Positions 683 through 51,926 are shown, numbered from the stretch's first letter. The stretch is DNA of 64,000 bases from Minisyncoccia bacterium (GCA_049287305.1 JBAQFO010000012.1:89768-153767), one strand, 5' to 3'. Translations and numbers: made by a program. Notes: generated from the letters alone by a model not told the origin.

Positions 683-969
683 AACAAAAAAGTTATGCAC
701 CTTGGGCATGGCGCTTCGGACGTTTAAGCGTATAGTGGTGTTGAATAGGGGGGAAGCGTGGACATTACCTGTGACAACTGCACGAATAGCAAAATCGGCG
801 ACTTGCTGGTTTGGATCAACAATCTGTGGGGATTCTCTTGCTCTCTTTGTGTGGCAAGATACGAGGAGCAGGAGCGGGAGAAGGAAATCTACCGCAGAAA
901 GTTCGAGGTAAGAGTGAGATAACACCCCGACCAGTTCAGAGAAGGAGGAAGATGAATAGTGAACCCCGT

Positions 970-1011
970 GCGGGCGCGCTCGAAGTTGAGTGCGCCCGCT
1001 TTTCTATTTTT
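970..1011 (+). terminator. intrinsic terminator: GCGGGCGCGC stem, 12-nt loop, GCGCCCGC, then a TTTTCTATTTTT tract
   Basis: A perfect 8-bp GC stem (970-979 pairing 992-999) is followed by a T-rich tract. Only the + strand has the U-run. Confidence 0.7.
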
Positions 1012-1099
1012 AAGTTATGCACTTTTAGAAAGGGCGTGGGGAATTTTTGAGCGTATACTATTGGAGAAACACAGTTCTCTTCGGGAAGGAGGAAGACAA

Positions 1100-1342
1100 G
1101 TGTTAGAGTCTGTTATTGAAGTTTCCGGCTCTTCTTGCTCCTCCTGTCATAGGAGCTTGGAGATTGGAAAGATGGAATGGATTCCCAACGTGGGAGTCAT
1201 GTGTGATGGGTGTGTGAAGCATTACTGGGAGTGGCACAAGGAGTGGGCAGAAGTTCAACGACAGAGGATGATGGAAGATGAAGAATGGTCAGCAGAAGAA
1301 GTTGAAGTTGCTTCGCTTGAAGAGATGGCACTCGTCTCTTGA
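1100..1342 (+). CDS. small GC-rich protein with CSSC...CDGC (CxxC-x22-CxxC), putative zinc ribbon; hypothetical
   Basis: GTG at 1100 is in frame with ORF 959..1342 and is preceded by the SD GGAAGGAGG 8 nt upstream. GC content and GC3 are far above the window background. There is no homology call. Confidence 0.3.
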   Translation: MLESVIEVSGSSCSSCHRSLEIGKMEWIPNVGVMCDGCVKHYWEWHKEWAEVQRQRMMEDEEWSAEEVEVASLEEMALVS

Positions 1343-2298: not shown

Positions 2299-5200
2299 AT
2301 GAGTGAAGAAACAAAAAAAATCATAGAAAAATCTGACGCAGCCTTCCGCGAAGAGAAGGTTTTGGAATTTTGGAAAGATAATAAAATTTTCAACAAGACG
2401 CTGGAAGCAAGTGCCGGCAAGAAAGAATTTATTTTTTACGACGGTCCGCCTACTGCTAACGGCATGCCGGGGATTCACCACCTGATTCCGCAATCTTTTA
2501 AGGATGCTATTCCGCGATATAAAACAATGCGCGAGTTCCATGTCCGCAGAAAGGGGGGCTGGGATACTCACGGCCTTCCCGTTGAACTCTTGGTGGAAAA
2601 AGAACTGGGATTGAAATCAAAAAAAGAAATTGAGAGTTACGGTATTGCCGCCTTCAACCAAAAATGCAAAGAAAGTGTCTGGAAGCACGTGGATGTCTGG
2701 TATAAATACCGCGACCGAGTCGGATACTGGGTGGACAAGGATAATCCATACGTTACTTACCACAACGAATTCATTGAGTCGCTGTGGAGTGTGGTGAAAA
2801 AAATAAACGAACGCGGACTACTTTATAAAGATTATAAAGTAGTGCCATGGTGTCCGAGGTGCGGGACGGCGCTGTCTTCACATGAGCTTGCCCAAGGATA
2901 TGAGGACGTAAAAGATTTATCGGTGACGGCAAAATTCAAAGTTGTCGGACAAAACAATACTTATATCCTGGCATGGACGACGACTCCATGGACGCTTCCA
3001 GGGAATGTGGCACTCGCTGTTGGAGAAAATATTGATTATGTAAAGGTGAAAGTAGGAGCCGAGCTTTATATTTTAGCCAAAGCCCGACTTTCTATAATAA
3101 CCGAATCTTACGAGATAGTGGAAGAGATAAAAGGCGGAGGGCTGATTGGCTTGGAATATGAACCGCTGTTCCCATATTTCAAAAATACGATTTCCGAAAA
3201 TGAAAAACCAAAACTGGAAAAAGCCTTCCGGGTGCATAAAGCAAACTTTGTAACCACGGAAGACGGCACGGGGGTAGTGCATACCGCCGTAATGTATGGA
3301 CAGGACGACTTTGTGCTCGGGAACGAAGTCGGCTTGCCGAAACATCATATGGTAGGGCTGGATGGAAAATTCCTTCCCGGGACTGGCATATTTGAAAGGC
3401 GCTTTGTAAAAGACGAGGAAGTTGCCGTAGATATAATCAAAGATTTGGCTGGACGAGGGCTTCTTTTTAAAAAAGAAAAATACGAACACTCGTATCCGCA
3501 TTGCTGGCGATGCAAAACTCCGCTCATATACTACGCGAGAGATTCTTGGTATATCAAAATGTCTGACCCGAAAATAAAAGCCGAACTCATCAGCCAAAAC
3601 AAAGAAATAAATTGGGAGCCGGCGCATACCCGCGACGGACGTTTCGGCGAATGGCTTCGGGAGATAAAAGATTGGGCAATATCACGTGAGCGATATTGGG
3701 GAACACCGCTTCCGGTGTGGTCTTGCGAAACTTGCAAGAAAACCGAAGTGCTCGGGAGCATAGAAGATATAAAATCTAAAGCAAAAAAATCCGGAAATAA
3801 ATATTTGGTAATGCGGCACGGCGGAACTAATGCCAACAAGAAAGGACTTGTAAGCTATAAAAATGAGGCAAGCGACCACCTGACGGAAGAAGGGAAAAGG
3901 CAAGTCACGGCAAGCGCGGAGAAACTAAGTAGCCAAAAAATAGATTTAATTGTGGCGTCTCCCTTTGTTCGCACTAAAGAAACAGCATTAATAGTTAAAG
4001 ACAAATTTGGCCTCGGCGAAGACCAGGTTGTTTTTGACTCGCGCTTGGCGGAATTTGACCCTGGGGATTTTGACGGCAAAGAATGGAAAGATTATCACAG
4101 ATATATTGCTAGCTCAGGGTCTGGATGGTTCAATCAAACAATCCCGGGCGGAGAATCCCTCAAGGATGTGGGGGAGAGGACGGCGTCCCTCTTATATGAG
4201 ATTGAAAATAAGTTCAGTGGAAAAAATATTCTCATTGTTACCCATGGCGGACCGGCATGGCTTTTGTTCGTTAATTCTGGGTTGTTTATACCAGGAGGCG
4301 AGGCTTATAGGATTCCAAACGGAGAATCTTTCGTAAAAGAATTTCAACAGCTAAGGAATGCCGAGGTTAGAGAGTTACCGTTCGCGCCGTTGCCCCATAA
4401 TGAAAAATACGAATTGGATTTGCACAAACCTTATATTGATGAAGTAAAAATGGTTTGTTCCTGCGGAGGAGAACTTATCCGCACCAAAGAAGTCATGGAC
4501 GTGTGGTTTGACTCTGGTGCAATGCCTTTTGCTCAGGACCACTATCCGTTTGAAAATAAAAAATGGGTGGAAGGGCCCGGGTTCCCTGCGGATTTTATCG
4601 CGGAGGCCATAGACCAGACGCGCGGATGGTTCTATACGCTACATGCCGTCGGAATTTTGATGGGGCGAGGCAAGGCATATAAAAACGTGATTTGCTTAGG
4701 TCATTTACTAGACGCCAAAGGAAAGAAAATGTCCAAGTCTCTCGGCAACGTAGTGAATCCGTGGGAAGTAATGGATAAATATGGAGTGGACACATTACGC
4801 CTGTGGATGTATTCCATAAACCAGCCAGGGGAGTCAAAGAATTTTGACGAGAAAACGGTGGCGCTTCTCTCTCAGCAAGTTTTCGGACTGCTTTACAATG
4901 TGCTGGCCTTTTACGAACTTTACCGAGACAAAAGCTACGAAGATAACTCCAGACCAAGCTCTAAAAATATTTTGGACAAATGGATTCTCACCCGTCTTTT
5001 TGAATTAAGGAATGATGTAACAGCCAACATGGATAGTTATAAATTGTTGGAACCTGTGCGAGGAATGAGAGATTTCATCGGAGACCTTTCTACTTGGTAT
5101 TTAAGGCGGTCCCGAGAAAGAATAAAGGAAGGCGACTCGGAAGCGAAGGCCACTTTATATTTTGTGTTGAAGAGTCTAGCCAAGCTGATGGCTCCGTTCG

Positions 5201-5808
5201 CCCCTTTCGCTGCGGAAGACATCTGGTTAAAACTTAGAACAGACAAAGATAAAGAAAGTGTGCATTTGGAAAATTGGCCGACCGAATCCAATATTTTAGG
5301 CATTCTAATGCGACTACCCGGACAAATGCGCACCCTGGTCTACATGGATGAAGTAAGGAAAATAGTAACCCTGGGACTTGAGGCTAGGCAGAAAACCGGG
5401 ATAAAAGTCCGCCAGCCACTTGCCTCCATCAAGGTAAAGTTCGGGAAGCTTGGAGCGGAATACTTGGAATTAATAAAAGAAGAACTGAACGTGAAAGAAA
5501 TAATCTTTGATGATTCAATTTCAGAGGAAGTATTGCTGGATATAAGAATAGACGAAGAACTGAAAGCGGAAGGAAGCTATCGCGAACTTGTGCGGGCTCT
5601 TCAGGATATGAGGAAAAAATCAGGACTTACGCCGAGCGATGTCATAGCGCTTACCATTGCAACAAACGAAGACGGGAAAGCGTTGATTGAGAAATTCCAG
5701 GCGGACATGAAGAAAACAGTTCTTGTCTCAAATATAGAATTTGCTGAAAATGACGGGGAGAAAATAGTAGTTGATGAGTTGGTTTTCAGGGTTAAGATTG
5801 AGAAATAA
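2299..5808 (+). CDS. ileS: isoleucyl-tRNA synthetase (type-2, Thermus/eukaryote-like) carrying an inserted histidine-phosphatase domain
   Basis: The HIGH-class motif PTANGMPGIHH and the KMSKS motif are both present. The CP1 editing region (TTTPWTLPGN), WGTPLP and DVWFDSG are also there. The start is ATG 2299 (MSEETKK); the track ORF from 2236 is an upstream extension. Confidence 0.93.
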   Translation: MSEETKKIIEKSDAAFREEKVLEFWKDNKIFNKTLEASAGKKEFIFYDGPPTANGMPGIHHLIPQSFKDAIPRYKTMREFHVRRKGGWDTHGLPVELLVEKELGLKSKKEIESYGIAAFNQKCKESVWKHVDVWYKYRDRVGYWVDKDNPYVTYHNEFIESLWSVVKKINERGLLYKDYKVVPWCPRCGTALSSHELAQGYEDVKDLSVTAKFKVVGQNNTYILAWTTTPWTLPGNVALAVGENIDYVKVKVGAELYILAKARLSIITESYEIVEEIKGGGLIGLEYEPLFPYFKNTISENEKPKLEKAFRVHKANFVTTEDGTGVVHTAVMYGQDDFVLGNEVGLPKHHMVGLDGKFLPGTGIFERRFVKDEEVAVDIIKDLAGRGLLFKKEKYEHSYPHCWRCKTPLIYYARDSWYIKMSDPKIKAELISQNKEINWEPAHTRDGRFGEWLREIKDWAISRERYWGTPLPVWSCETCKKTEVLGSIEDIKSKAKKSGNKYLVMRHGGTNANKKGLVSYKNEASDHLTEEGKRQVTASAEKLSSQKIDLIVASPFVRTKETALIVKDKFGLGEDQVVFDSRLAEFDPGDFDGKEWKDYHRYIASSGSGWFNQTIPGGESLKDVGERTASLLYEIENKFSGKNILIVTHGGPAWLLFVNSGLFIPGGEAYRIPNGESFVKEFQQLRNAEVRELPFAPLPHNEKYELDLHKPYIDEVKMVCSCGGELIRTKEVMDVWFDSGAMPFAQDHYPFENKKWVEGPGFPADFIAEAIDQTRGWFYTLHAVGILMGRGKAYKNVICLGHLLDAKGKKMSKSLGNVVNPWEVMDKYGVDTLRLWMYSINQPGESKNFDEKTVALLSQQVFGLLYNVLAFYELYRDKSYEDNSRPSSKNILDKWILTRLFELRNDVTANMDSYKLLEPVRGMRDFIGDLSTWYLRRSRERIKEGDSEAKATLYFVLKSLAKLMAPFAPFAAEDIWLKLRTDKDKESVHLENWPTESNILGILMRLPGQMRTLVYMDEVRKIVTLGLEARQKTGIKVRQPLASIKVKFGKLGAEYLELIKEELNVKEIIFDDSISEEVLLDIRIDEELKAEGSYRELVRALQDMRKKSGLTPSDVIALTIATNEDGKALIEKFQADMKKTVLVSNIEFAENDGEKIVVDELVFRVKIEK
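3796..4410 (+). other. in-frame histidine phosphatase (PGAM/SixA-like) domain inserted in IleRS between the WGTPLPVW...KAKKSG and LDLHKPYIDEV segments
   Basis: The catalytic RHG is at 3814-3822 (LVMRHGGTNAN). Further PGAM-type segments are LTEEGKRQ, IVASPFVRTKETA, RLAEFDPGDFDG, PGGESLKDVGER and a second His motif ILIVTHGG (His near 4243). A Thermus-type IleRS has only about 40 aa between these flanking motifs. Confidence 0.7.
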
Positions 5809-5838
5809 AATTCTCGTTCTTGTCTTTAAAAAGAATAG

Positions 5839-5847
5839 TGGTATAAC
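5839..5847 (+). promoter_or_regulatory. extended -10 TGgTATAAC for the small GC-rich gene
   Basis: Read from the sequence. It is followed by GGAGG at 5854-5858 and ATG at 5866. Confidence 0.4.
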
Positions 5848-5865
5848 AAGACTGGAGGCCTAAGC

Positions 5866-6063
5866 ATGGTCAATTGCGAGAGCTGTCAGATGCGGTCGCT
5901 CAAGGAATGTGAACGGTGTGCAACCAATTTCCTCATGGAAAACAAGTGCACACCGGAAGGGGCTCCTGTTCAGGTGGAGCCCTTCGACGCACGCAACCGC
6001 CTTCGGTTCGACCCGAACATGTTCGTGTCGAACCGGAAGCGTCGCCAGCTCAATCCGTCCTAA
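5866..6063 (+). CDS. small GC-rich Cys-motif protein (CESC-x9-CERC), hypothetical
   Basis: The SD GGAGG sits 7 nt before the ATG and a terminator lies downstream. Codons are strongly GC-rich compared with ileS. The region also holds a 12-bp inverted repeat, CTTCGGTTCGAC...GTCGAACCGGAAG. Confidence 0.35.
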   Translation: MVNCESCQMRSLKECERCATNFLMENKCTPEGAPVQVEPFDARNRLRFDPNMFVSNRKRRQLNPS

Positions 6064-6086
6064 GTCCAGCATCCTCTGCTGGCAGA

Positions 6087-6132
6087 ATCCGTCGGGAGCG
6101 CACCTTCGTTGCGCCCGACGGATTTTAATTTT
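6087..6132 (+). terminator. intrinsic terminator: ATCCGTCGGG ... CCCGACGGAT with inner GCGCA/TGCGC, then TTTAATTTT
   Basis: A perfect 10-bp outer stem plus a 5-bp inner stem, followed by a T tract. Confidence 0.7.
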
Positions 6133-6148
6133 ATGGTAAAATATAGTT

Positions 6149-6790
6149 ATGAAGATCAAGAAACTTGGACACTCCTGCCTAGTAATTAATATTAACGGGG
6201 CTAAGATAATGTTGGACCCCGGCAAGTATTCTCTGTCTCAGGTTGAAGAAAGGGATATTGACATAATTCTAATCACGCACGAGCATAGTGATCATTGCCA
6301 CTTAGAATCTATTAAAAAGATATTGGAGAATAACCCACAAGCAGAAATAATTACCAACTTTTCGGTAGGGAAAATTCTGGAGAAAGAAAGTATTAACTAT
6401 GCAATGATTGAAGATGGGCAGAAGGTTGTAAGTCATGGTGTTACTATTATTGGTGTGGGGAAATTACACATAGAAGCACATCGTAGAATTCCTGTGGTTC
6501 CAAATACTGGTTTTATAATAAATGACAAGTTTTTTTACCCCGGGGATGCGTTGCACATACCAAAACATAAGGTAGAAGTTGTTGCCTTTCCTGTTGGCGG
6601 AGGATTTCTTAAAATCAGCGAAGTTGTTGAGTGGCTCGAAACACTTAAACCCAAAGTGGCTATTCCTGTGCATGATGGCCTACTAAACGAAGACGGTAAA
6701 AAAACTTTCTATAAAAATTACCAAAATATCCTTACAGGCACCGGAATTGAATTTAAGGCATTAGAAGTAAATAAAGAAGAAGAATTTTGA
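6149..6790 (+). CDS. MBL-fold metallo-hydrolase
   Basis: ITHEHSDH (the HxHxDH motif) and further His and Asp ligands downstream. Confidence 0.8.
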   Translation: MKIKKLGHSCLVININGAKIMLDPGKYSLSQVEERDIDIILITHEHSDHCHLESIKKILENNPQAEIITNFSVGKILEKESINYAMIEDGQKVVSHGVTIIGVGKLHIEAHRRIPVVPNTGFIINDKFFYPGDALHIPKHKVEVVAFPVGGGFLKISEVVEWLETLKPKVAIPVHDGLLNEDGKKTFYKNYQNILTGTGIEFKALEVNKEEEF

Positions 6791-7239: not shown

Positions 7240-7821
7240 ATGCATCACATTTACCACACCGAGGGAATAATACTGGGAAGCAGGGCTCACGGAGAATCCG
7301 GGAAGTATTATTATATTTTCACCCGAGACTTGGGAATGGTATACGCTTCGGCGCAAGGAGTCCGCAAGATTTCTTCCAGACTTCGGTTTATTCTCCAGGA
7401 TTTTGCTTATTTAAAAATTGACCTGGTGCAAGGCAAGGATTTGTGGCGATTAACAAGTGCCCAGAAGACAAACATGCTGGAAAAAGTATCCAAAAACCCC
7501 GAAACATTCAGAGTATTTTTTAACATAGCTCGTCTTTTGAAAAGACTGCTGGCCGGAGTGGAGCCCAATATTCCTTTATTTTCAGACCTAATAAGCGGGC
7601 TTTCGGTTTTGGAAAAAACTACCAAACTCGAAGATTTACGGAATATTGAAGCTGTCATAGTTTTACGGGTGCTTCACAACTTAGGCTACATCGGGGACGA
7701 TAAATTACTGGGGAATCTCGTGCAGTCTCCGTTTGAGGAAGAATTAATTTATAAAGTTTCAAAAAACAGGCCCGAAGTGCTGGAACAGATAAATAAAGCG
7801 CTAAAAGAAACTCATCTGTAA
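7240..7821 (+). CDS. recO: DNA repair protein RecO (short form)
   Basis: The N-terminal OB-fold pattern EGIILGSRAHGESGKYYYIFTRDLGMVYASAQGVRK matches RecO. Confidence 0.65.
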   Translation: MHHIYHTEGIILGSRAHGESGKYYYIFTRDLGMVYASAQGVRKISSRLRFILQDFAYLKIDLVQGKDLWRLTSAQKTNMLEKVSKNPETFRVFFNIARLLKRLLAGVEPNIPLFSDLISGLSVLEKTTKLEDLRNIEAVIVLRVLHNLGYIGDDKLLGNLVQSPFEEELIYKVSKNRPEVLEQINKALKETHL

Positions 7822-7848
7822 AGCGTAAAGTATGGTATAATTCCCTTT

Positions 7849-18469: not shown

Positions 18470-18489
18470 GCTTTTTGAAGGAGGTAGGT

Positions 18490-18777
18490 ATGACATACCT
18501 ACGGGGCGTTGAGACCTACGGGGTCGAGGATGGGAAGTACTTCAGACAGTGGAGTTTCCTCGACAAGGAGGAGAGGACGCAAGTCTTCCTCCTCGCCGCT
18601 GAGATGGAGGACGTCCACAAGCGTCAGGACGTCGTCGAGATGAACCTGCGAGAAGTCTCGGAGGTCGTTTCCGAGGGGACCCTCCAGGGGATGGTCGACG
18701 GTCTGTTCGAGAGGATGGAGCCCATTCTCAAGGCCACAGACGTCGTGCGCATCGCTGTCGGAGAAGGTCTGAAGTAG
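18490..18777 (+). CDS. small acidic protein with compositionally foreign (high GC3) coding sequence; hypothetical
   Basis: Canonical promoter, SD and ATG. Codons are almost all G/C-ending (gag, gac, gtc, ctc), unlike neighbouring efp and recA. A mirror ORF on the antisense strand is typical of GC-rich coding DNA. Confidence 0.45.
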   Translation: MTYLRGVETYGVEDGKYFRQWSFLDKEERTQVFLLAAEMEDVHKRQDVVEMNLREVSEVVSEGTLQGMVDGLFERMEPILKATDVVRIAVGEGLK

Positions 18778-51376: not shown

Positions 51377-51471
51377 CCGAGTAACTTTTGCCCCGATGCC
51401 CCACAGGCCAAAGTCACGCGGGGTTTTTATTTTGACTAATATATGTATACTTAAGGCGAAAGGAGACGCCC

Positions 51472-51714
51472 ATGCTCTTGTGTGAACTTATCGTTCGGTG
51501 TGAGAAGTGCCCTCGCGGTGAAGATGGGGATCTTCAAATATGCCACCTTATACAGGTGTGGACGGGCGGCGTTGGTGTGTCCGTGGCAATCGCAACCTGT
51601 GAAAGGTGTGGCTACCAAGAGGAGTGTGATATCTCCTATCCCGCACTCGTCGCAGAGCACGAGGAACGAAGCAGTCGGGTTGTCCCGAATCCCGAATCTT
51701 CGTTCGTCATGTAG
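51472..51714 (+). CDS. small GC-rich Cys-rich protein (CEKC...C..CERCGYQEEC), hypothetical
   Basis: AGGAG 6 nt before the ATG; a downstream hairpin AGGGGC...GCCCCT is followed by a T tract. GC content is well above the window background. Confidence 0.4.
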   Translation: MLLCELIVRCEKCPRGEDGDLQICHLIQVWTGGVGVSVAIATCERCGYQEECDISYPALVAEHEERSSRVVPNPESSFVM

Positions 51715-51926
51715 TGAGGGGACAATGAAGAATCATCAGAGCCTGAGTTGTTCAGGAAAGGGGCAAAACGCAAGTTAGCCCCTTTATCATTTCCAGGCTT
51801 GCGGTTTGGACGAATTGTGATATATTACATATACCGCAGAGAAAGTAGGCACAGATAGTTTATCTGGTTAAGTCCTATTTAGTGGGTCGATATTCCTTTT
51901 GCCTATATGGTGGAATGGAAGAAAAA

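Follow-up and report, generated by a model that had tools for sequence, protein, structure and literature searches.

A GC-rich islet downstream of ileS in a Minisyncoccia bacterium is probably a strain-specific gene for an orphan 65-residue Cys-pair protein

A short GC-rich islet lies directly behind ileS in the DNA of an uncultured Minisyncoccia (Patescibacteria/CPR) bacterium, and it raises the question of whether such a block encodes a small protein, a structured RNA or both, or is a piece of inserted DNA that only resembles a gene. We studied the islet within a window of 64,000 nucleotides, by which we mean the whole stretch of DNA analysed; identical proteins are deposited at NCBI under locus tags WAV15_*. 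The islet sits between ileS (stop codon 5806-5808) and the gene for an MBL-fold hydrolase (ATG 6149, 213 aa). The first-pass annotation described it as an expression unit with a promoter, a Shine-Dalgarno (SD) sequence, a small ORF, internal inverted repeats and a terminator, and all of these parts were found in the sequence, with small corrections. It had also placed the GC content of the islet well above that of ileS, and this holds: from SD to terminator (5854-6126) the GC content is 0.579, as compared with 0.442 in ileS, 0.372 in the downstream gene and 0.398 in the 64-kb window. The promoter stretch at 5809-5853 is AT-rich (0.289), and the GC-rich body is thus flanked by an AT-rich promoter on one side and a T-tract on the other. 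The features of the locus are as follows.

5809..6133, + strand: whole insert of about 325-330 bp, present here and absent from the closest known strain (alignment with Hainich contig L082); bounded by the ileS stop at 5806-5808 and by TGGTAAAAT, the -10 element of the next gene, at 6134-6142
5820..5847, + strand: putative sigma-70-type promoter, with TTGTCT at 5820-5825, a 16-nt spacer and the extended -10 element TGGTATAAC at 5839-5847; read from the sequence, as is the next entry
5833-5839, + strand: overlapping alternative -10 element, GAATAGT
5854..5858, + strand: Shine-Dalgarno sequence GGAGG, 7 nt before the ATG at 5866
5866..6063, + strand: ORF of 65 aa, MVNCESCQMRSLKECERCATNFLMENKCTPEGAPVQVEPFDARNRLRFDPNMFVSNRKRRQLNPS, ending in TAA at 6061-6063
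5875..5919, + strand: putative four-Cys zinc knuckle formed by the CESC codons (5875-5886) and the CERC codons (5908-5919), as judged from the codons themselves
5914..5955, + strand: hairpin A, within the ORF, a perfect 9-bp stem (CGGUGUGCA / UGCACACCG) with an inner 5-bp stem
5956..5985, + strand: hairpin B, within the ORF, 3+7 bp (GGGCUCC / GGAGCCC) with a 9-nt loop
5998..6041, + strand: hairpin C, within the ORF, a 44-nt near-palindrome with a core of 11+4 bp at 6002-6037
6066..6082, + strand: hairpin D, 6 bp, 3 nt after the stop codon
6084..6132, + strand: intrinsic terminator, a G+C-rich stem of 13+2 bp (6084-6126) running into TTTTAATTTT (6123-6132)
6134..6151, + strand: context outside the insert, the extended -10 element TGGTAAAAT of the MBL-fold gene, 6 nt before its ATG at 6149

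The genes upstream have peculiarities of their own. Residues 503-657 of IleS (window 3805-4269) form an inserted histidine-phosphatase domain (His_Phos_1, E = 1e-30), and since the long IleS (about 1160 aa) can be aligned over its full length in all 80 related genomes, this insertion is clade-wide. Upstream of ileS and of a SemiSWEET-like gene (Pfam MtN3_slv, 2036-2296) is a T-box leader at 1733-1956, which contains a AAAGGUGGUACCACG box and a terminator hairpin with its T-run; the score of 49.3 bits (E = 1e-9) lies under the Rfam gathering score of 93, and the default scan missed the leader for that reason. The T-box leader explains the 3' portion of another GC-rich islet, the first of those that the first-pass annotation had singled out.

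The start signals of the islet are those of a gene with its own transcription and translation, with some reservations. The extended -10 element proposed earlier is confirmed as TGGTATAAC, one base off the position then implied, and it resembles the TGGTATACT and TGGTATAAT elements elsewhere in the window. Its hexamer, TATAAC, has a C in place of the canonical final T, for which reason the islet promoter was not called by the consensus scan. A promoter motif shared with the small-gene cassette at 758, TTTAA-N4-ATAGTGGT, was considered and set aside as a weak link. The GGAGG does stand exactly 7 nt ahead of the ATG, as had been claimed, and among the 54 long ORFs of the window a 5-mer SD is found upstream of none and a 4-mer upstream of three. 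A -10-like hexamer ends 4-9 nt before the ATG in 12 of 46 genes, with a peak at 6 nt and against a background rate of 5.3%, an excess which suggests that leaderless starts are common; about a quarter of the genes in the window have a TATAAT-like hexamer ending some 6 nt before the ATG, and the MBL-fold gene, with its -10 element 6 nt before the start codon, has this leaderless-type arrangement typical of the host genome. These patterns imply that leaderless mRNAs are widespread in the host genome and that the GC-rich mini-genes are its SD-bearing exceptions. Two considerations on the same signals count against the coding reading, namely that the non-canonical TATAAC implies a transcription start at or inside the GGAGG, and that the GGAGG weighs less if an SD-poor lineage does not use anti-SD pairing.

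The presence of an ORF is by itself weak evidence, since all three plus-strand frames and one minus-strand frame are open across the GC-rich islet. The other two plus-strand frames yield S/R/P/G-rich peptides of off-frame appearance that run through the terminator. The frame set by the SD has a codon-phase signal: its GC content at codon positions 1, 2 and 3 is 0.55, 0.42 and 0.71, and the gap between the third and second positions is significant relative to dinucleotide shuffles both with the frame fixed (p = 0.0005) and for the best of three frames (p = 0.0015), so that the islet is not non-coding in all frames. The ORF also fills the transcript, its stop codon being separated by 3 nt from hairpin D and by 21 nt from the terminator, and two independent callers have predicted a gene here, of 65 aa in the Logan assembly and of 42 aa (from M24) at NCBI. 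Taken together, the third-position periodicity in the SD frame, the GGAGG in an otherwise SD-free genome and the stop codon just before the 3' hairpins make the ORF look coding. The lack of any homologue, and hence of dN/dS or conservation support, counts against this reading.

The predicted protein has a mass of 7.6 kDa, a pI of 8.8 and a GRAVY of -0.85, with residues 31-65 reaching a pI of 11.3. Its Cys residues are arranged as CESC-x7-CERC (C4, C7, C15 and C18), a correction to the x9 spacing originally given, and a fifth Cys is residue 28. With 65 aa and two CxxC motifs (C4-x2-C7 and C15-x2-C18) it is of the size of zinc-finger micro-proteins, although not of the C(P)XCG form, and the 7 residues between the pairs are short for a classical zinc ribbon, which counts against the reading of the islet as a gene for such a protein. 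The single-sequence AlphaFold model is poor (pLDDT 55.6) and uninformative.

The second outstanding property of the islet is its folding. A 291-nt stretch folds at -124.6 kcal/mol, as compared with -94.8 +/- 4.9 for dinucleotide shuffles (z = -6.1 on the plus strand, where 0 of 200 shuffles fold as well; z = -5.5 on the minus strand), and it forms five hairpins, three within the ORF and two after it. The inverted repeat noted earlier inside the ORF, CTTCGGTTCGAC / GTCGAACCGGAAG, is present and extends to two 22-nt arms (5998-6019 and 6020-6041) that are 86% complementary and abut without a spacer. In the resulting hairpin C, GTTCG and CGAAC words alternate, four in all, and the centre, CGAACATGTTCG, forms a perfect palindrome of 12 bp; a reading of this centre as a LexA/Cheo-box was rejected because its spacing is N2 and not the N4 of such a box. 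The claim of an own terminator was likewise borne out, and the consensus scan found a terminator sub-stem with T-tail, while the minus strand of the islet has no T-run. CTTCGG, the UUCG tetraloop, was discarded as a mark of the islet given that it is enriched throughout the window (57 occurrences, 25 expected) and thus not specific.

The folding exceeds what the protein sequence requires. Against synonymous codon permutations the ORF has a z of -2.8, and against resampling by GC3 class a z of -3.75, whereas sixteen 198-nt segments of ordinary genes gave a mean z of -0.19 (SD 0.8, minimum -1.28). Structure beyond coding need is one feature of dual-function small RNAs, and excess folding is also what would be expected of a structured RNA gene, which counts against the coding reading. 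The Cys-pair codons lie in the unstructured 5' part, outside the strong hairpins, which cover codons 17-58.

Searches for relatives were uniformly negative. Rfam 15 gave no matches at gathering scores over the whole window and, at E <= 10 over 5700-6250, only chance-level matches with E >= 0.78, so that the islet corresponds to no known RNA family; ARAGORN found no tRNA or tmRNA. The first-pass annotation had named a lack of coding signal in every frame together with a known RNA family as the outcome that would refute its reading, and neither was observed. The 65-aa protein matched only itself among 5.8 billion clustered proteins and, with full HMMER, among 1.84 billion representatives. NCBIfam, PHROGs and PADLOC returned nothing for it, its best Pfam match was zf-C2H2_ZNF592 (8 bits, E = 3, not significant), and its sole match in the PDB was irrelevant (E = 1.6); the zinc-ribbon HMMs that had been proposed as a check do not match it. 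At the DNA level, nothing similar was detected by blastn and nhmmer in 80 related ileS loci, and the 64-kb window has no second copy. Viral and JGI metagenome contigs, searched by back-translated scans, and phage and plasmid records, queried by blastn, likewise contained no counterpart of the islet. A 376-aa protein from a marine catalogue (P0132), which shares a 90%-identity cluster with the 42-aa NCBI version of the ORF (P0002), was dismissed as a relative, having no similarity to the ORF; it looks like an S-adenosylhomocysteine hydrolase, and its cluster membership is a clustering artefact.

The 80 related loci, from Nomurabacteria/Paceibacterota-type genomes with IleS 58-69% identical, place the islet in a variable site. 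The linkage of ileS to recO is retained in nearly all of them, and the gap between the two genes ranges from 0 to about 3 kb, occupied by Nudix-, HAD-, HD-domain-, PaaX- or alpha/beta-hydrolase-like genes, by a GC-richer reverse-strand gene, or by nothing. The closest known relative is a contig from the Hainich aquifer (L082), with an MBL protein 88% identical and 90% nucleotide identity over the MBL-PNPOx stretch. In this contig the MBL-fold ATG lies 5 nt after the ileS stop with no islet between. The two strains thus differ by the presence or absence of a block of about 330 bp, either inserted in the strain studied or deleted in that from Hainich. Logan contig L001, with 100% identity over 5207 nt, carries no information on strain variation. 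In a more distant Minisyncoccia MAG (L005), an unrelated GC-rich unit of 349 bp (7490-7835) sits in the ileS-recO gap with the same layout as the islet, comprising a TATAAT box, GGAGG, a 69-aa ORF and a terminator; this ORF (NCBI WA060_01595) has a GC3 of 0.81 (p < 0.0005) and is an orphan in a one-member cluster.

Two types of junction follow ileS, both widespread among the relatives. In many (L082 at 40-70, L002, L027, L071, L083 and others) the last ileS codons, ...ATT GAT AAA ATA TAG/TAA, double as an extended -10 element, TGATAAAAT, and the ATG of the next gene follows 2-7 nt after the ileS stop; in the second type (...ATTGAGAAATAA) there is a separate promoter. The ends of the islet form an 8-bp perfect inverted repeat, ATAAAATT (5805-5812) and AATTTTAT (6127-6134), and the heptamers that flank it, TGAGAAA and TGGTAAA, are alike. 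The right-hand repeat, TGnTAAAAT, is the extended -10 element of the downstream gene and recurs in many relatives, and both the end repeat and the flanking heptamers coincide in part with functional signals that are also found in relatives lacking the insert. A transposon-like insertion with terminal inverted repeats and a target-site duplication was considered, and was weakened by the fact that TGnTAAAAT is a conserved downstream promoter across relatives.

The islet is one of several GC-rich small genes in this DNA, and the window contains four others that stand alone.

758-922: 54 aa
1100-1342: 80 aa
51472-51714: 80 aa
18490-18777: 95 aa

The genes at 758, 1100 and 51472 each encode two CxxC pairs and are mutually related (Smith-Waterman z = 6.2 and 4.3), and no member of this family was found outside the host lineage. 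The first-pass annotation had raised a distant homology of the islet ORF with the small proteins at 1100 and 51472, and this failed, as did homology with the protein at 758: Smith-Waterman z was 0.4-1.1, below the 6.2 and 4.3 of the family, and the family HMM (alignment A4) gave the islet ORF 0.4 bits, ranking it 117 of 500 among its own shuffles. What the islet shares with the 758/1100/51472 family is the cassette architecture of promoter, SD, GC-rich small ORF, terminator and excess mRNA folding. An SD (GGAGG or AAGGAG) precedes the mini-genes at 5866, 51472 and 1100 and the L005 ORF; GC3 is 0.57-0.80 in the mini-genes as compared with 0.34-0.47 in typical genes of the window; and all six GC-rich small ORFs (five in the window, one in L005) fold more stably than their synonymously permuted versions, with z from -1.7 to -2.95. 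The 758-922 gene differs from its counterpart in the Hainich strain by 6 synonymous and 2 amino-acid changes and by exchanged start (GTG/ATG) and stop (TAA/TAG) codons, with the frame kept, and judged from these strain changes the sister mini-genes are demonstrably coding.

Further observations concern these neighbours themselves. Window 690-1342 and L089 157-893 are a tandem array of small CxxC...CxxC gene cassettes, composed of a promoter word AAGTTATRCAC ... GTATAGT or GTATACT, an SD-like stretch, an ORF of 52-80 aa and a terminator; in the Hainich strain one more paralogous cassette (a 69-aa call, L089 510-719) stands between 758 and 1100, and the perfect 30-nt palindrome TACGTAATGTATTACGTAATACATTACGTA found just upstream of the 758 cassette at 653-682 is missing. 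The cassette at 51440-51790, upstream of rplJ, has a TATACT box, AAGGAG, an 80-aa ORF with CEKC...CERC (51472-51714) and a terminator, and its protein is weakly related to that of 758 (z = 4.3). The GC-rich orphan gene at 18475-18777 (95-100 aa, NCBI WAV15_02930) has extreme GC contents by codon position (0.66, 0.30 and 0.80), no Pfam match and excess mRNA folding (z = -2.7).

We conclude that the islet is probably a strain-specific accessory gene for an orphan 65-aa Cys-pair protein, with its own promoter and terminator and a message selected for strong structure. The coding signals, the presence or absence of the block, the analogous unit in L005 and the coding sister cassettes together favour this reading, in which the self-contained expression unit of the first-pass annotation stands as the best explanation and its suggested kinship with the 1100 and 51472 proteins does not. 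The most serious challenge comes from the possibility that the islet is a structured small-RNA gene of about 270 nt, with five hairpins between the same promoter and terminator and an incidental ORF. We consider this unlikely. The folding of the islet (z = -6.1) and the structure excess over synonymous recodings, which is outside the range of native genes, would fit an RNA gene, as would a GC-rich body set exactly between an AT-rich promoter and a T-tract, an arrangement typical of RNA genes in AT-rich genomes; moreover, with all frames open an ORF is expected by chance, and this one is a complete orphan. Against it, the RNA has no Rfam match and, with no homologue in the 80 related loci or in the phage, plasmid and metagenome collections, no covariation support. 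The third-position periodicity is specific to one frame (p = 0.0005), a GGAGG stands at ideal spacing in an SD-free genome, and the stems are perfect, without the bulges or internal loops of old functional RNAs.

A combination of the two is quite improbable in our judgement, namely a transcript which, like RNAIII, SR1 and SgrS, encodes a small protein and has in addition an RNA role of its own (protein-binding or regulatory), or whose DNA palindromes serve as operators or as sites of recombination. Coding signals and excess structure are both significant, this double signature recurs in five other GC-rich mini-genes (four in the window, one in L005), the Cys-pair codons lie outside the strong hairpins while codons 17-58, under the hairpins, specify what is probably a disordered tail, and the 44-nt palindrome with its four GTTCG/CGAAC words resembles an operator array. 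Nevertheless, no target, partner or conserved motif was identified, there is no comparative support, and structure that serves mRNA stability explains the same data more simply. Least of all do we favour a non-functional recent insertion, either MITE-like or a foreign GC-rich scrap joined by illegitimate recombination and carrying chance signals, which is very improbable. Its presence in one of two close strains, its orphan status, the 8-bp end repeat ATAAAATT / AATTTTAT and the similar flanking heptamers TGAGAAA / TGGTAAA would suit such an origin. Yet functional sequence accounts for the end repeats (the stop codon of ileS, the T-tract of the terminator and the TGnTAAAAT promoter that is conserved ahead of the downstream gene), and no second copy exists in the window, the 80 related loci or public collections. 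Foreign gene fragments would be expected to have relatives in a collection of 15 billion proteins, and they would not bring a host-like AT-rich promoter, SD, ATG, stop and terminator in the right order.

If the islet is an orphan accessory gene, it would be a cassette within the variable gap between ileS and recO, with transcription starting at an AT-rich promoter of its own and translation, from the GGAGG-led ATG, giving a hydrophilic protein of 65 residues and 7.6 kDa. The four N-terminal Cys (CxxC-x7-CxxC) would probably hold one zinc ion, and the basic C-terminal half (pI 11.3) would probably be disordered, a tail that suggests a small regulatory micro-protein binding nucleic acid or protein. 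The most economical guess at function would thus be a zinc-knuckle micro-protein with a nucleic-acid or protein ligand. Transcription would stop at the intrinsic terminator of the unit, and the message appears to have been selected for high structure, with hairpins that would most likely stabilise a very short mRNA.

CPR genomes are tiny, yet they retain many unannotated small genes, and a 7.6-kDa orphan that is cleanly present in one natural strain and absent from another offers a tractable case of very recent gene gain, possibly of gene birth. The mini-genes break two rules of their host genome, in being SD-led and in having high GC3, and if their excess structure is functional, the cassettes would be a model of how coding and RNA-structure constraints share one short sequence. 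The islet might further be an instance of an undescribed class of GC-rich, hyper-structured, SD-led mini-cassettes with their own promoter and terminator, which would be exchanged between strains as blocks in an otherwise SD-less genome and whose hairpins would be functional in their own right, as dual-function RNA or as a handle for cassette exchange; we regard this as rather unlikely. Taken alone, the islet is an ordinary orphan gene, a curiosity and not a new kind of system.

Dual-function small RNAs that encode small proteins include RNAIII/delta-haemolysin, SR1/SR1P and SgrS/SgrT. Like these, the islet would be a short RNA, rich in hairpins and putatively transcribed independently, that contains a small ORF and ends at a terminator of its own. 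In contrast to them, its ORF takes up most of the transcript and not a minor portion, conservation does not extend beyond one population, and no base-pairing target is known. MITEs and palindromic elements of the Rickettsia type can sit in coding sequence or create it, and what the islet has in common with them is its small size, its richness in palindromes, its short inverted termini and its occurrence in one strain but not in another. It differs in being single-copy, with no copy family in the 64-kb window, the 80 related loci or the viral, metagenome, phage and plasmid collections, and in that its terminal repeats are attributable to functional flanking signals.

Further parallels are found among small Cys-pair proteins. 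The CxxC family private to this lineage (758-922, 1100-1342, 51472-51714 and L089 510-719) resembles the islet in its AT-rich promoter, in a short leader whose SD is purine-rich, in a GC-rich ORF that encodes 52-80 aa and two CxxC pairs, in a terminator of its own, in excess mRNA folding, and in presence or absence between strains. The islet ORF has no detectable sequence relationship to it, however; its pairs are 7 residues apart rather than 17-31, and it lacks the W-I/T motif and the promoter word AAGTTATRCAC of the family. One-domain zinc-finger micro-proteins are represented by the C(P)XCG proteins of Haloferax volcanii (PMC6562870, PMC10716476, PMC11241148) and by Brz of Halobacterium salinarum (PMC2253796), and several predicted zinc-finger micro-proteins are reported to bind no zinc (PMC11241148). 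The islet ORF is akin to these in having fewer than 70 residues, two CxxC motifs as its only recognisable feature and a stand-alone gene, such genes being often lineage-restricted and of proposed regulatory or binding role; it is unlike them in its CESC/CERC motifs, which are not C(P)XCG and are only 7 residues apart, in having no sequence or HMM similarity to them, and in its host, a CPR bacterium and not an archaeon. Small zinc-finger-like micro-proteins and orphan accessory genes are known kinds, of which the islet ORF is a new and unrelated member, and what is mildly unusual is the class behaviour it displays, GC-rich, hyper-structured, SD-led and strain-exchangeable, in a leaderless, SD-poor CPR genome.
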